This document shows, piece after piece, positions 250-61,093 of a stretch of 64,000 bases of DNA. Location: the NCBI GenBank assembly GCA_963722255.1, contig CAVRJO010000002.1:32001-96000 (forward strand), written 5' to 3'. Position 1 is the first letter of the stretch; every line of letters begins with the position of its first letter. Both the position numbers and the translations under genes were made by a program. The DNA comes from Candidatus Babeliales bacterium (GTDB lineage Bacteria; Babelota; Babeliae; Babelales; JANWKD01). The notes under the pieces are model-generated. The model was not told where the DNA came from, made no database searches, and was given only the letters and a program-made list of their open reading frames with translations.

Positions 250-1764
250 TTATATCATCCATAGGTGTGCCTCCTTTTTATTCGATTCTGATTCAGCTTT
301 AAGTAATTCCGCTTCCCTTAATGTAGCAAATAGTTCTTGATTATTATGATGAATAATAATTCTATGATTTTGTTTAATTTGGTTCCAAAGTAATCGGATT
401 TCATCCGGGATAATGATGGTATGCGGGTTACATTCTATTTTATAATTCCCAATTGAGGTAAGTTTATTCATAACTTTTTTGGCTGCAGTGATATACTTTT
501 TTTGTGGAGACCAATCAAATATTTGTAAATATAACTTTGCTACGTTGATAAATTTTATTTCTATTTGGGTCAGTTCATTATAAAGTGCAATCTTCCTTTC
601 ACCTAAATCAAAATCACGAGCTTTTTGCGCCAACCTGCCATATTCCTTCTTTTTTAATAGAGTTGTAAGCTCTTCAATATTTTGTTTATACCCATCTTTT
701 GATAGGGCTTCATCCATTTTAATAAGCTCTTTTTTTATCATTTTATCAGTCATCTCTTTTATTGCATTGCGATCTTCCTTCTTTTTTGGTGACAAAGGTC
801 TTTTTCGCTCATATTCCTCTATCTCATTTTTTATACCTAAGGCTTGACTTAATTGATTTTTAGCTTGATTTTTCACTATTTTTACTTCCTCTAAGGTATC
901 TTTATAAATCCTATACATAGGCAACTTTTTTATTTTTGCATGAATTTTTTTCATTACATTTGGGATATCTTTATGTATAAATTCTTCTGATTCCTGATGT
1001 ATAGTATCTAATCCTTGATTTTCTGTTTCATCAAACATACTCTCTAGATATTGACTAGCGACTTCTTCTTTCATTCTATAATCTTTTAAATCATAAGATT
1101 GTTTATAAAAGAATTCTGCATTTCTATACATGGTACTACTCGTATGAAAAAAAAGTGCCTTTAGAAACTCTTCTTGTTCATTTTTTGCCTGAAGAAAGAG
1201 TGCAAATGCTTTTTCTTGATACCGTTTTCCTACCATATAATAATATTTTTTATAATAGCGTATTTTTTCAGCACGAAATTTTTTAGAATATTGTTGCGCT
1301 TTTGCAATTGCGATTTTGTCATTTTTGGCATGAAATAAAATCAGAGAAAGAAGATATTCTAATAGTTCAAATGATGTTTTAACATGCTCATGTTTTTTTT
1401 CAAAAGTCAGACCATTACCGAGTGGACATCTTAAATAATTAAGAAATAATTTGTATTTTACTACCTGATTTCTATACGATAAAGGATCATTGTCTTTTTT
1501 TGGAGTACCAATGGTAACTAATCCTGCCATTAGCTGTTGTCGCACCGACCTATTGGATGCTGAACCCATAAAAGATAATTCTTGCCCTCTTTTTTTCTTT
1601 GAATCAATCAATGCACTCTCCGTGCTCGCTGCTTTCGAAGGAATTTCATTGAGTGGTAAGGTCAGGTTGAATCTCTTTACCATTTTTTTATGAGTATCCT
1701 CATTTTCCATTGCATCTATAGACACCATGATTAAAAAAAAATAGATTATTTGTAGTGTTTTCAT
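250..1764 (-). CDS. Secreted helical hypothetical protein, paralog of the neighbouring gene
   Basis: ORF 250..1851; likely start MKTLQIIYFFLIMVSIDA-ME at 1764; Lys-rich and helical. Confidence 0.75.
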   Translation of the reverse strand: MKTLQIIYFFLIMVSIDAMENEDTHKKMVKRFNLTLPLNEIPSKAASTESALIDSKKKRGQELSFMGSASNRSVRQQLMAGLVTIGTPKKDNDPLSYRNQVVKYKLFLNYLRCPLGNGLTFEKKHEHVKTSFELLEYLLSLILFHAKNDKIAIAKAQQYSKKFRAEKIRYYKKYYYMVGKRYQEKAFALFLQAKNEQEEFLKALFFHTSSTMYRNAEFFYKQSYDLKDYRMKEEVASQYLESMFDETENQGLDTIHQESEEFIHKDIPNVMKKIHAKIKKLPMYRIYKDTLEEVKIVKNQAKNQLSQALGIKNEIEEYERKRPLSPKKKEDRNAIKEMTDKMIKKELIKMDEALSKDGYKQNIEELTTLLKKKEYGRLAQKARDFDLGERKIALYNELTQIEIKFINVAKLYLQIFDWSPQKKYITAAKKVMNKLTSIGNYKIECNPHTIIIPDEIRLLWNQIKQNHRIIIHHNNQELFATLREAELLKAESESNKKEAHLWMI

Positions 1765-1771
1765 ACAATTC

Positions 1772-3364
1772 TCACACACCATTACAATACATTCTATTAA
1801 ACTTATATTGAATTGGCTTTTGAATTCGTGCCACTCTATCAATTGAGTCATTTAATGATTTTTTTAACTCTGCAATGGCTCTTTGGTCTTGTTTTACTGT
1901 TGAATCAAGTGAATCAATTTTTTTGTGAATGCGTTTCATTCTTTTAATATTAAGCTTAATGGTTACAAGAATCTGTAACTGAGGGTTAAGAGCAAATGCT
2001 TCACGAAGTAATTTAGAAGATTCATAATAGTTATTTTCAATTCTTTTAAGATCTTGAATGTAACGAAATATATTTTTTTTAATCTTATAATCAATAATAG
2101 CTTTATAATAAATAGTTTGATTTTTTCCTTTAATAATAGTATTCAATTCATCAATAATTTTTCCGCTAAATTTTTTTTCTTCTTTATTCTTCTTACGAAC
2201 TACGATTTTTTTCTTATGTTCTTTCTCTATAATTCGTTCTAATTTTGCTTTATCACGCTTATTTAGTTTAGTAAGCCGTGCAGTTCGTTTACGAGGAGAG
2301 GTAATTTTTTCATTTTTTTCTTTAAGAAAATCCTTAAATTCGTTAAATGGCTGTAGTAATTTTTCAAGTTTTTGAGCTCTATTAATACATTTGCCTGAAG
2401 ACTGACAACGATTTCTAAAAATTCCATATTCTGGAAAGGTGTGAATTTTTGACTGTATTTGATATAAAAGATTGTTTATAGGGTCTAACATATGAGGAAT
2501 CTGTAGATCTCCTTGTTTCAAAGCATTCTCATAATATTGTTTCGCTTCGGCACAATAGGCTTGTGAGCTGTTATATAAGATTTTTTGCTTATATAAATTT
2601 AATGCTTGTTGTTCTTTATTCTCTTCATTCATGCGTTCTGCATCAGCAAATGCAATTTCAGCCAATCGTTGAAACTTTAACCCATCCAAAAGATTAACTC
2701 GACTATAATAATCTCGCTCCTCCTCTTCTATTTCTTTTTTTTTAAAGAGTGCATGCTTCAAATTTTCAACATCATCATGTTCTTGTGCAGCCTCGGCCAT
2801 TTGAATTGCTAAAAACTTTAATAGCCCATATTTTTTTTCAACAAGATCTTCCATGGTTACACATGGTCGAGGAACTGTAAAACAAGTAATATTAATCCAG
2901 GCTTCGAGCTCATCAACGATGTTTGTCGAAAAAGATTCATCGTCATAAATACTTTTTGAAAGAAGATCAAATAGTGTCATTTTGCCTTGTTGCACTTCAA
3001 ATTCAGAATCAGTACGGAAGAGAGTTTCTATTGATCGGTGTTTCGATGCTTGTTTGCGTGCTATCGGGGTAGTATTACTTTTATTTAATGACAAGGAAAG
3101 AACTCGTCTTCTTTGCGAAGGTGAGTTTAACATTGCCTGTAAAGAAGGGTCAATTTTAGGTTTTACAACTAATTCTTTTTCTCGCTTTTCTGTTTGGTCA
3201 TCTATAGTATTTTGAGAATCTAAGCTTGCGCTTCTCTCTCTTACTTTTTCTTTGCCTTTACCTTCCATCCCAAGGTTGGAATCTAGAGCCCATGCTTCCA
3301 TACACTCTAAAGTGCACGAAAAAATTGTGCTAAGAAAAAATAAAAGTACCCATACAATTTTCAT
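1772..3364 (-). CDS. Secreted helical hypothetical protein
   Basis: ORF 1772..3382; likely start MKIVWVLLFFLSTIFSCTLEC-ME after an AAAGGGG SD; shares blocks with 250..1764. Confidence 0.8.
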   Translation of the reverse strand: MKIVWVLLFFLSTIFSCTLECMEAWALDSNLGMEGKGKEKVRERSASLDSQNTIDDQTEKREKELVVKPKIDPSLQAMLNSPSQRRRVLSLSLNKSNTTPIARKQASKHRSIETLFRTDSEFEVQQGKMTLFDLLSKSIYDDESFSTNIVDELEAWINITCFTVPRPCVTMEDLVEKKYGLLKFLAIQMAEAAQEHDDVENLKHALFKKKEIEEEERDYYSRVNLLDGLKFQRLAEIAFADAERMNEENKEQQALNLYKQKILYNSSQAYCAEAKQYYENALKQGDLQIPHMLDPINNLLYQIQSKIHTFPEYGIFRNRCQSSGKCINRAQKLEKLLQPFNEFKDFLKEKNEKITSPRKRTARLTKLNKRDKAKLERIIEKEHKKKIVVRKKNKEEKKFSGKIIDELNTIIKGKNQTIYYKAIIDYKIKKNIFRYIQDLKRIENNYYESSKLLREAFALNPQLQILVTIKLNIKRMKRIHKKIDSLDSTVKQDQRAIAELKKSLNDSIDRVARIQKPIQYKFNRMYCNGV

Positions 3365-59573: not shown

Positions 59574-59794
59574 TAAATACCTCCTTTTTAATAAATTTAT
59601 ACTTTAATACAATAATATCAATTTGCATTAAAAATGCAATATAGCTCACACATTTGTCTTGAGCGGCAATTCAAAAAAAGCTCCTGCAGATAATAATGAA
59701 ACAAATAGGATAAAATTATATATTTTATTCATAACAACCTCCATATTAATACCTATAAATATTTTATACTATTTGTAATAAAAGCCAAGAATTA

Positions 59795-61093
59795 CTAGCT
59801 ATTTTTTTGTGCTTCAAAAGTATCAAAATGAGCATTAAGGATCTTTTTCATTTCTTCGGTTAATTGCTTGAATTCAACCATTTGTTCTCTAGAAAAAAGA
59901 ATTGGAATCCCTGCCTGCTTACAATACGGTAGAAGCAATGCAACAAGTGAAACATCATTTTCCTCGATAAGTTCACCCAAAACATCGCATTCTGCGATAT
60001 TTTCCAGAATTCGCGCACCTCTATCAAGCAGAGATTTCACAATGATGCAGTTCCTACTATCCATAAGTGCGCGATATAGGGCACTGTCCATTTCACCCTC
60101 AACATTTGTGGATGCACCTTTTTCTAATAACCAATTTACTAGAGATACAAAACCATATGATGCTGCATAACAAAGCGGTGTTTTATCCGATTCATCCAGC
60201 CCATTGAGTTGCTCTGGAAATTTTTTATAATAGATTTTTACAAGTTTTTTGTTCTGAGTGCGTACTGCACAATGCAATGCTTCATAACAGGTCATCCCGC
60301 GATCAAGCAATAAGCGAGCAATCGCTACTTGACCGCATAACGTTGCTTCATATAAAGCTTCAAATTCACCTAACTCACCAAGCCAAGAATGATCTTCATC
60401 ATGTTTAAGCAAAATTTTGATATGTTCTAATGCTCCGGCTCGTATTGCATTCACAAATCCTTGCTCTAAATCATGAAATGAAATATCTTTTCGATCTATA
60501 ATGCTTTTTAAATAATTTATATCTCCACCTGCACAAAGAGATGGTATCATTGTTGAATCAAAAGCACTCTCAATCACTTCAGCATATTTTAAAGCTCTTT
60601 CACCTGGGATTGCTAAAATAAATTTCAATAACTGATCATGATCATCTTGTTCCATGCGATCTTCAGGAACATAAAGAAGTTCATAACAATCAAGATGCCC
60701 TTGTTTAGCTGCAACCAAAATGGGAGTTTCATTCCATTTATTTCTTGGACGCCTATGGACTCCTAACTCCAATAAATAGGCCACAATATTTTCATTACCT
60801 AAATAAGCAGCAGTATGCAAAAGCGTATCACCATTATGATTTTTTTGTTGTGCTATATGAACAGCGGCTGCGGTAGGCAATGATTGTAAAACTCTTAATG
60901 TTTTCTTTACATTCCGATTTCCCTGTTGATACCCGTAAATTTTTTTTGCAGCTATTTCAGTTAACTTGGGCACATTAAAATGATTTGTTATTTCTAGTGC
61001 ATAAGTTTTTTTAGAAACATGCTCCTCTTCTTCCATTGCTGTAAGCAACGATGATATACCCAAAAAGATTACAAGAAAAATAGTAGATAGCAT
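59795..61093 (-). CDS. Secreted ankyrin-repeat protein with an N-terminal BC-box-like motif
   Basis: Signal ending LTA-ME; VPKLTEIAAKKI; GDTLLHTAA, ETPILVAA, KTPLCYAA. Confidence 0.9.
   Translation of the reverse strand: MLSTIFLVIFLGISSLLTAMEEEEHVSKKTYALEITNHFNVPKLTEIAAKKIYGYQQGNRNVKKTLRVLQSLPTAAAVHIAQQKNHNGDTLLHTAAYLGNENIVAYLLELGVHRRPRNKWNETPILVAAKQGHLDCYELLYVPEDRMEQDDHDQLLKFILAIPGERALKYAEVIESAFDSTMIPSLCAGGDINYLKSIIDRKDISFHDLEQGFVNAIRAGALEHIKILLKHDEDHSWLGELGEFEALYEATLCGQVAIARLLLDRGMTCYEALHCAVRTQNKKLVKIYYKKFPEQLNGLDESDKTPLCYAASYGFVSLVNWLLEKGASTNVEGEMDSALYRALMDSRNCIIVKSLLDRGARILENIAECDVLGELIEENDVSLVALLLPYCKQAGIPILFSREQMVEFKQLTEEMKKILNAHFDTFEAQKNS

Follow-up and report, generated by a model that had tools for sequence, protein, structure and literature searches.

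The stretch of DNA analyzed here, 64,000 nucleotides long and referred to below as the window (G000:C2:32001-96000), comes from a Candidatus Babeliales bacterium whose 1.62-Mb genome (34% G+C) consists of two contigs. Eight genes of the window, all on the minus strand, encode proteins in which a hydrophobic leader runs directly into Met-Glu, and this N terminus proved to be part of a strong, real pattern that extends over the whole proteome. The initial annotation had listed the eight as effector-like proteins that share an N terminus, a candidate tag for export or for stability in the host; all of them translate as claimed, with leaders of 18 to 23 residues followed by the dipeptide (below, the tag), which is encoded by ATGGAA in seven genes and ATGGAG in one (Table 1). 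Of two near variants proposed at the same time, the Met-Thr form at 7599 (VYG-MT) is real. The Met-Lys form at 59573 (ALE-MK) has a leader-like N terminus but is doubtful, being an ORF (open reading frame) of only 51 codons with Glu at the residue before the junction. This ORF (59418-59573) is preceded by AAGGAGG and may represent a small exported peptide or a remnant. The envelope proteins of the window had been said to lack the motif, and this holds for the PpiD-like chaperone, the 4436-amino-acid (aa) giant and a 1240-aa orphan, all of which have ordinary junctions.

Table 1. Tagged genes of the window and untagged genes used for comparison (window coordinates; a hyphen in a junction marks the predicted cut)
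Product	Gene	Strand	Signal peptide	Tag codons	Junction	Families and remarks
Orphan protein, 504 aa	250..1764	-	1764..1711	Met-Glu, 1710..1705	SIDA-ME	No Pfam family; longer in-frame starts at 1782 and 1851
Orphan protein, 530 aa	1772..3364	-	3364..3302	Met-Glu, 3301..3296	TLEC-ME	No Pfam family; alternative start at 3382 (+6 residues)
Ankyrin-repeat protein, 695 aa	3740..5827	-	5827..5762	Met-Glu, 5761..5756	LFA-ME	Ank_2, E=4.6e-62; tagged paralogues elsewhere in the genome
Orphan protein, 302 aa	6221..7129	-	7129..7073	Met-Glu, 7072..7067	LHS-ME	No Pfam family
Orphan protein, 147 aa	7156..7599	-	7599..7531	Met-Thr (variant), 7530..7525	VYG-MT	No Pfam family
Weak leucine-rich-repeat (LRR)-like protein, 382 aa	39687..40835	-	40835..40782	Met-Glu, 40781..40776	IIS-ME	LRR_4, E=1.7e-4, and LRR_8, E=6.9e-4, neither reaching the Pfam cut-offs
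Orphan protein, 261 aa	40861..41646	-	41646..41584	Met-Glu, 41583..41578	LFN-ME	No Pfam family; atypical Asn before the cut
Orphan protein, 1131 aa	49351..52746	-	52746..52678	Met-Glu, 52677..52672	CFG-ME	No Pfam family; longer GTG start at 52839
Ankyrin-repeat protein, 432 aa	59795..61093	-	61093..61037	Met-Glu, 61036..61031	LTA-ME	Ank_2, E=1.1e-27
PpiD-like chaperone (untagged)	13109..15070	-	N-terminal anchor		No Met at junction	Rotamase and SurA_N_3
4436-aa exported protein (untagged)	26234..39544	-			AYA-ESS	

The genome-wide counts are based on a crude ORF calling of our own, which gave 1624 ORFs that do not overlap and have 70 codons or more; gene calls and signal-peptide calls alike were made with our own heuristics, without a gene finder or SignalP. 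A position-specific scoring matrix built from positions -10 to -1 proved too unspecific, matching membrane helices as well, and explicit rules were used instead. When N termini with an uncharged hydrophobic run were scored for their last uncharged and first charged residues, the commonest junction pair was ME, found in 119 leaders, followed by LK (33) and LE (31). The position of the dipeptide is equally distinctive: ME occurs 175 times at residues 16 to 35, compared with 12 to 40 times in each later 20-residue bin and about 30 expected from its background frequency of 0.00093. A generic site rule that considers only residues -3 and -1, and is therefore blind to the first two residues after the cut (+1 and +2), found sites in 496 ORFs. 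Their commonest +1 residue is Met, present in 149 ORFs, even though Met makes up only 1.7% of all residues, so that Met at +1 lies far above background, as the initial annotation had supposed. In these 149 sites, +2 is Glu in 78, Asn in 21, Gln in 12, Lys in 9, Asp in 7, His in 5, Thr in 5, and another residue in 12.

A looser rule places Met at +1 in 199 of the 1624 ORFs, with Glu (101), Asn (22), Gln (19), Lys (10), Thr (8) and Asp (8) as the main +2 residues. Judging from residues +3 to +10 of these proteins, Glu, Asn, Gln or Asp would be expected at +2 in 34% of cases, whereas 150 of the 199 have one of them there; Lys, expected in 12%, is found in 5%. In G058, a relative without the rule, the looser rule still picks up 3.4% of ORFs, only one of them with Glu, Asn, Gln or Asp at +2, and because of this background we consider about 150 truly tagged proteins, or some 9% of the proteome, to be a fair estimate. 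Our filters also undercount, as several proteins scored as untagged carry Met-Glu two residues past a Lys or Arg, among them a C2H2 zinc-finger protein with the junction AWCKG-ME.

The 119 ME leaders were selected without any condition on positions -1 or -3, and yet both positions carry the signature of a cleavage site. Residue -1 is small in 115 of them (Ala 45, Ser 28, Gly 21, Cys 16, Thr 5), residue -3 is small or aliphatic in 108 (Leu 40, Ile 15, Ala 15, Ser 14, Val 9, Thr 8, Cys 7), and residue -2 is bulky. The predicted site thus precedes the Met, as had been proposed. The leaders are 16 to 33 residues long, mostly 18 to 23, with a Lys-rich n-region (Lys is the second residue in 48), a core rich in Leu, Ile and Phe, and an enrichment of Ser and Asn at -6 to -4, so that their predicted basic n-, hydrophobic h- and polar c-regions conform to the classical profile of Sec substrates cut by signal peptidase I (SPase I). 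No tagged protein has the lipobox with Cys at +1 that signal peptidase II uses, since +1 is Met in all of them. Nor do they resemble type IV prepilins: their hydrophobic stretch lies before the Met, with a hydrophilic mature part behind it, and a genuine pilin of this genome (MKRNIQGFTMIELMIV) looks unlike the tagged leaders.

One alternative is that the inner ATG is a second start codon, possibly leaderless, that yields a cytoplasmic form beside the exported one, or even the true start behind an artifactual leader. The residue is always an ATG-encoded Met, and leaderless initiation needs no Shine-Dalgarno sequence, both of which would fit. However, a strict Shine-Dalgarno motif (GGAG, GAGG or AGGA at -18 to -4) precedes 57 of the 119 first starts and none of the 119 inner ATGs, compared with 36 of 323 inner ATGs in other genes. 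The pattern at -1 and -3 is explained by a peptidase site and not by initiation; the Lys-rich n-regions and the tight leader length likewise speak for real leaders. Moreover, real starts are mostly followed by Lys (40 of 176 well-supported starts, the most frequent second residue) and by Glu in only 14 of 176. Where Leu or Val occupies the equivalent position, there is no preference for the start-like codons TTG (2 of 31 LE) or GTG (3 of 12 VE). We therefore consider the second-start explanation very improbable, and the concern raised in the initial annotation that the internal Met might be the real start is not borne out. In practice, gene finders that choose the inner ATG as the start will drop the signal peptide, so that the protein looks cytoplasmic.

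The Glu codons that follow the Met (GAA 92, GAG 27) occur in the genomic ratio, which argues for selection on the amino acid and not on the DNA. The mature sequences of the 199 tagged proteins fall into 165 clusters, 152 of them singletons, with ME as the majority form in 78 clusters, and their leader-coding DNA falls into 181 clusters. The genes thus share no leader cassette, and with so many unrelated mature and leader clusters, the rule must be kept independently in many genes. These observations also bear on the possibility that the Met is an evolutionary leftover, either of a leader gained upstream of an old start or of a promoter-leader cassette that spread through the genome. Many tagged proteins are eukaryote-like or orphan, so that a recent gain of leaders is plausible. 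Such a relic should nevertheless have the second residues typical of start codons in general (Lys, Ala, Asn) and not 75% Glu, Asn, Gln or Asp, and it would not predict the exact -3/-1 placement seen in 115 of the 119 leaders, the unshared leader DNA (181 clusters for 199 genes) or the same rule with another +2 residue in other families (see below). Of the explanations considered here, we regard this one as the most improbable.

Which proteins carry the tag was assessed for all leader-bearing ORFs in 464 kb (the window plus C2:96-496 kb) with Pfam. The 52 tagged proteins include ten with ankyrin repeats (two of them weak matches), one with weak LRR matches and two beta-propellers, one of which also has a BTB domain; the rest have no family above threshold. 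At least 25 of the 83 untagged leader-bearing proteins are housekeeping or membrane proteins, including BamA, PpiD, YidC, SecD, FtsK, an S41 peptidase, two M23 peptidases, SpoIID, FKBP, two GH1 proteins and a pilin. With families sorted into classes by our own reading of their names, housekeeping proteins account for 0 of 52 tagged and 25 of 83 untagged proteins (Fisher P=1.3e-6), whereas eukaryote-like repeats account for 13 of 52 and 2 of 83, respectively (Fisher P=7.5e-5), in agreement with the enrichment on ankyrin, LRR and orphan proteins over envelope proteins that the initial annotation had anticipated. Untagged junctions are ordinary, for example, IMA-EQ in BamA, LYA-PD in the S41 peptidase, ALC-DA in SpoIID and SLA-TT in a TPR-SH3 protein. 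Among the 32 ankyrin genes of the whole genome, 23 encode a leader followed by Met (16 found automatically and 7 by eye), 6 encode a leader with another junction, and 3 are unclear.

Two tagged proteins of the window were followed further. A homologue search of 5.8 billion protein clusters with the 302-aa orphan matched the query alone, and a search of the genome contigs for loci related to that of the 695-aa ankyrin protein gave 20 pattern matches, none of them confirmed.

Several other exported proteins of this genome stood out. A eukaryote-like ubiquitin C-terminal hydrolase (UCH, E=3.3e-31; L145:17852-19705, minus strand) has a leader with the ordinary junction PIS-IKTQ. Two proteins with leaders have zinc fingers of eukaryotic type, a zf-MYND protein (E=8.8e-19) without the tag and the C2H2 protein mentioned above, in which Met-Glu follows Lys-Gly (L103:10065-11408 and L103:12595-13290). 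A tagged 233-aa protein (L089:382-1080) has a weak synaptobrevin (SNARE) match over residues 20 to 63 (E=7.5e-5, short of the Pfam cut-off) and is a possible SNARE mimic. Finally, a 1209-aa exported protein (L101:15030-18656) oddly combines matches to the C terminus of the baculovirus polyhedron-envelope protein (E=6.9e-20) and to a TANC1-like winged helix (E=9.6e-13). In the window itself, the untagged 4436-aa exported protein spans 13 kb and differs in base composition from its surroundings (G+C of 0.39 to 0.43, compared with 0.31 to 0.37). The proteins at 57406-58014 and 61121-61765, 3 kb apart, have N termini that look alike (LLASQSRSRRNLLSEAEIPF and LLVGTKSVQRRRLLSEAQIPF); they are putative Maf-type paralogues.

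Taken together, these are very probably genuine Sec-type leaders that SPase I would cut directly before the conserved Met, leaving a mature end of Met-Glu or, less often, Met-Asn, Met-Gln or Met-Asp. We are equally confident, for the two claims stand jointly, that the dipeptide is kept by selection at the protein level and marks a class of some 150 to 200 fast-evolving, presumably host-directed proteins (ankyrin, LRR, WD40/BTB, zinc-finger and orphan proteins), as opposed to the bacterium's own envelope proteins.

To see how far the rule extends, we sampled relatives at 400 kb each (G001, same genus; G003, same family; G020 and G022) or 200 kb each (G062, G057, G014 and G058), the last six all representing other families of the same order. 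Families f2, f4, f5, f7 and f13 were covered by ankyrin loci alone (13 ORFs, from G005, G008 and G010) or, as with G007 and G016, left out. As these are partial samples of related genomes, the counts are not independent. Under the looser rule, tagged ORFs number 55 of 380 in G001 (+2 Glu 25, Asp 4), 53 of 390 in G003 (Glu 30, Asp 1) and 19 of 200 in G014 (Glu 12, Asp 1), with Glu in favor. Asp predominates at +2 in G020 (37 of 377 ORFs; Asp 13, Glu 4) and G022 (27 of 372; Asp 11, Glu 2). No +2 preference is seen in G062 (7 of 197) or G058 (6 of 178), and in G057 (14 of 188) the +2 residue is mostly Tyr. The share of Asp, Glu, Asn and Gln at +2 is 65 to 79% in G001, G003, G014 and G020 and 48% in G022, against a background of 27 to 37%. 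Several families thus have the rule in common, with a switch between Glu and Asp, whereas in others it is weak or missing. Orthologues offered little further resolution, as a local BLAST comparison of the 149 tagged proteins with the partial relatives gave 28 query-genome pairs, mostly of ankyrin repeats.

We considered a separate Met-Tyr rule in G057 and rejected it, as most of these cases belong to one paralogue family (MYAAQE...). The family is conspicuous in its own right: loci L115 to L124 (G057:C1:1-200000) hold at least eight paralogous exported proteins whose leaders end in Ser, followed by Met-Tyr-Ala-(A/M/F)-Q-E.

With the relatives in hand, the interpretation in the initial annotation can be said to stand in part: the site before the Met, the enrichment and the rejection of a start codon are upheld, whereas the two functions proposed there, a sorting signal for a second translocation step and a mimic of a NatB-type eukaryotic N terminus, are hypothetical. 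The size of the tagged class, some 10% of the proteome, had been missed, as had the spread of the rule to several, but not all, related families.

The relatives also bear on an explanation confined to the bacterium, in which Met-Glu would help the signal peptidase of this lineage or block its own periplasmic aminopeptidases and would have no role in the host. Acidic residues just past the cut are common in Sec substrates, which would suit this explanation, as would the precedent of the Q-rule of Bacteroidetes, in which a phylum has fixed a single +1 residue for stability (PMC5837995). Against it, housekeeping exports of the same cell, processed by the same enzyme or enzymes, break the rule (BamA, S41, SpoIID and the TPR-SH3 protein), and sister families manage without it. 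The number of SPase I genes is no better a guide: there are two here and one in G014, where the rule is present, but also two in G058, where it is absent, and one in G057. G014 thus follows the rule with a single SPase I gene, and the idea that a dedicated signal peptidase paralogue lies behind it was rejected because neither gene number nor gene type tracks the rule. We judge processing or protection within the bacterium to be improbable.

The reading that we favor, although tentatively and at somewhat less than even chances, is that the tag provides a eukaryote-type N terminus of the NatB class for proteins that reach the host cytosol. The exact substrate set of NatB is Met-Asp, Met-Glu, Met-Asn and Met-Gln, and by the N-end rule exposed Asp, Glu, Asn, Gln and Lys are destabilizing. 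NatB acetylates Met before acidic or hydrophilic residues, and methionine aminopeptidases normally leave a Met in place when a larger residue follows it (PMC3104970). After the cut by SPase I, the predicted exported protein would begin with Met-Glu; in the host cytosol, a Met before Asp, Glu, Asn or Gln would be kept by methionine aminopeptidase and could be N-acetylated. The Met would thereby cap, and hide, the destabilizing Asp, Glu, Asn, Gln or Lys that a random cut in a charged N-terminal region would otherwise expose. The tag may therefore be a cap for stability or identity that follows the logic of the Q-rule but is restricted to effectors and dependent on host machinery. The need for Met would follow from NatB itself, because only N termini that begin with Met can be its substrates. 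The predicted mature ends obey the NatB-class rule (Met, then Asp, Glu, Asn or Gln) in 150 of 199 cases, against 34% expected, so that the +2 spectrum fits this reading, as does the similar bias toward Asp, Glu, Asn and Gln in G001, G003, G014, G020 and G022. We also count the absence of the tag from envelope-resident proteins in its favor.

Several points weigh against a NatB-class N terminus. Cleavage, acetylation and the host location of the tagged proteins are all predictions from sequence. NatB normally acts co-translationally on nascent chains at the ribosome, whereas here it would have to act on imported proteins. The choice between Glu and Asp by lineage is a difficulty because the two should be equivalent for NatB: Glu/(Glu+Asp) is 0.93 here against a background of 0.66 (P=8e-11), and 0.24 in G020 and 0.15 in G022 against 0.52 to 0.54. 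Small N-terminal residues (Ala, Ser, Thr, Gly) also escape the Arg/N-end rule, so that stability alone does not require Met. Some exported eukaryote-like proteins do without the tag, namely the ubiquitin C-terminal hydrolase, the zf-MYND protein and the six ankyrin proteins with other junctions. Finally, the rule is absent from related families: in G058 and G062 it reaches about 3.5% of ORFs, and the ankyrin N termini of G005, G008 and G010 have leaders, yet Met behind a small residue in only 1 of 13.

A bacterial sorting signal, the main alternative, is possible as well, if on the unlikely side. A periplasmic receptor or chaperone would recognize the exposed Met-Glu or Met-Asp and pass the tagged proteins on to a second export step, be it the type II-like system with its pair of secretins, vesicles or another translocon, in the manner of the lipoprotein +2 rule or a cleaved PEXEL motif. 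The restriction of the tag to one class, effector-like and not housekeeping, is in keeping with this, and the use of Glu in the source family and G014 but Asp in G020 and G022 would fit a reader that co-evolves with its signal. A type II-like locus is indeed present (L145:8049-16598, corresponding to G000:C1:854049-862598, minus strand), encoding a GspC-like protein (374 aa), a secretin (941 aa), a PilM-like protein (544 aa), a protein without family (188 aa) and a second secretin (798 aa). However, every one of the 61 genomes sampled across the phylum gave secretin matches, most of them two matches about 4.5 kb apart; as these genomes include rule-less ones, the secretins do not track the rule. 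Substrates of type II systems are, moreover, recognized in the folded state, without a known linear signal, and the fixed residue of the Bacteroidetes Q-rule is not a sorting signal (PMC5837995). Two copies of gspD are stated to occur in all TM6 genomes (PMC4776705), and the pairs of secretin matches at a spacing of about 4.5 kb are consistent with that statement and with a placement in Babeliales/Dependentiae.

A third candidate was a GNAT acetyltransferase with an N-terminal hydrophobic segment (L095:5778-6683, minus strand), which adjoins two tagged genes (L095:6827-7714 and 7775-8449) and has generic GNAT matches only, the best in NCBIfam being rimI, short of the cut-off. In the partial samples of the relatives, this query was not found in G001, G003, G022, G057 or G058 and gave weak matches in G014, G020 and G062. 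As its presence does not track the rule, we rejected this exported GNAT as the N-terminal acetyltransferase of the tag. None of the SPase I, secretin and GNAT candidates, then, proved to accompany the tag: SPase I number and type are uncorrelated with it, and the GNAT is missing even from the samples of G001 and G003, all of which counts against a sorting signal.

Whichever reading applies, the pattern concerns the Dependentiae, protist parasites that form a widespread phylum. The published literature on their secretomes describes many ankyrin and orphan proteins with signal peptides, which one species has on 44% of all coding sequences and on 78% of its ankyrin proteins, and another on 79 of 126 ankyrin proteins, as well as a type II system in the phylum (PMC6561590, PMC4378268, PMC4776705). 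Secretion systems of types III, IV and VI are not reported (PMC4378268), so that the route by which the many ankyrin, LRR and orphan proteins would reach the host is of particular interest. In the secretome passages of PMC6561590, PMC4776705 and PMC4378268, supplements aside, no conserved residue following the cut is described, and the Met-first rule is apparently unpublished. Because two residues set some 10% of the proteome apart from the housekeeping exports, candidate effectors can be listed for each genome from sequence alone, and a change of the Met or the Glu offers a simple experimental handle.

Among known systems, the lipoprotein +2 rule (Lol avoidance) and the lipoprotein export signal of Bacteroidetes show that one or two residues after the cut can decide the compartment of a protein. 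Those rules depend on a lipobox with a lipidated Cys at +1, whereas the tagged proteins have Met at that position and lack a lipobox. Substrates of NatB share with the tagged proteins a Met kept at position 1 and then an acidic or amide residue, as in 150 of 199 cases here; theirs arises from initiation in the cytosol, whereas the Met of the tagged proteins would be exposed by proteolysis in the bacterial periplasm. Another parallel is the Bacteroidetes Q-rule, in which SPase I substrates carry at +1 a Gln that is cyclized to pyroglutamate (PMC5837995). It too is a lineage-specific, near-invariant residue right after the SPase I cut, visible only in proteome-wide statistics, and it has been proposed to serve as protection or a cap for the newly formed N terminus (PMC5837995). 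The tag of Dependentiae differs in being Met plus Glu, Asp, Asn or Gln, with no enrichment of Gln at +1. It also differs in reach: the Q-rule covers most SPase I substrates, periplasmic ones included, whereas the tag marks one class only (0 of 52 being housekeeping proteins) and occurs in some families of the order while being absent from others; further, no modifying enzyme is known for it. As a second example, after the Q-rule, of a lineage that fixes the first residue past the cut, it is thus a class-specific one.

The PEXEL motif of Plasmodium is alike in another respect, as a hydrophobic leader of the endoplasmic reticulum/Sec type is followed there by a cut that exposes an N terminus for the delivery of hundreds of unrelated effectors. 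The new N terminus has Glu, Gln or Asp as its second residue, and its end is acetylated. In Plasmodium, however, the motif is separated from the leader, further downstream, and has a protease of its own, plasmepsin V, whereas the motif described here abuts an ordinary SPase I site, no dedicated protease or translocon was found for it, and the organism is a bacterium with two membranes. A full counterpart of PEXEL, in which a Met-Glu or Met-Asp end would license some 150 to 200 unrelated effectors per genome to pass the periplasm into the host through a co-evolving receptor or translocon in several Dependentiae families, seems unlikely to us; if true, diderm bacteria would have a secretion signal of a new kind, which would in turn imply a new step of secretion. 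In its form, the rule joins two known kinds of N-terminal signature, the lineage-specific +1 rule of the Q-rule type and the effector N terminus exposed by cleavage, as in PEXEL proteins.

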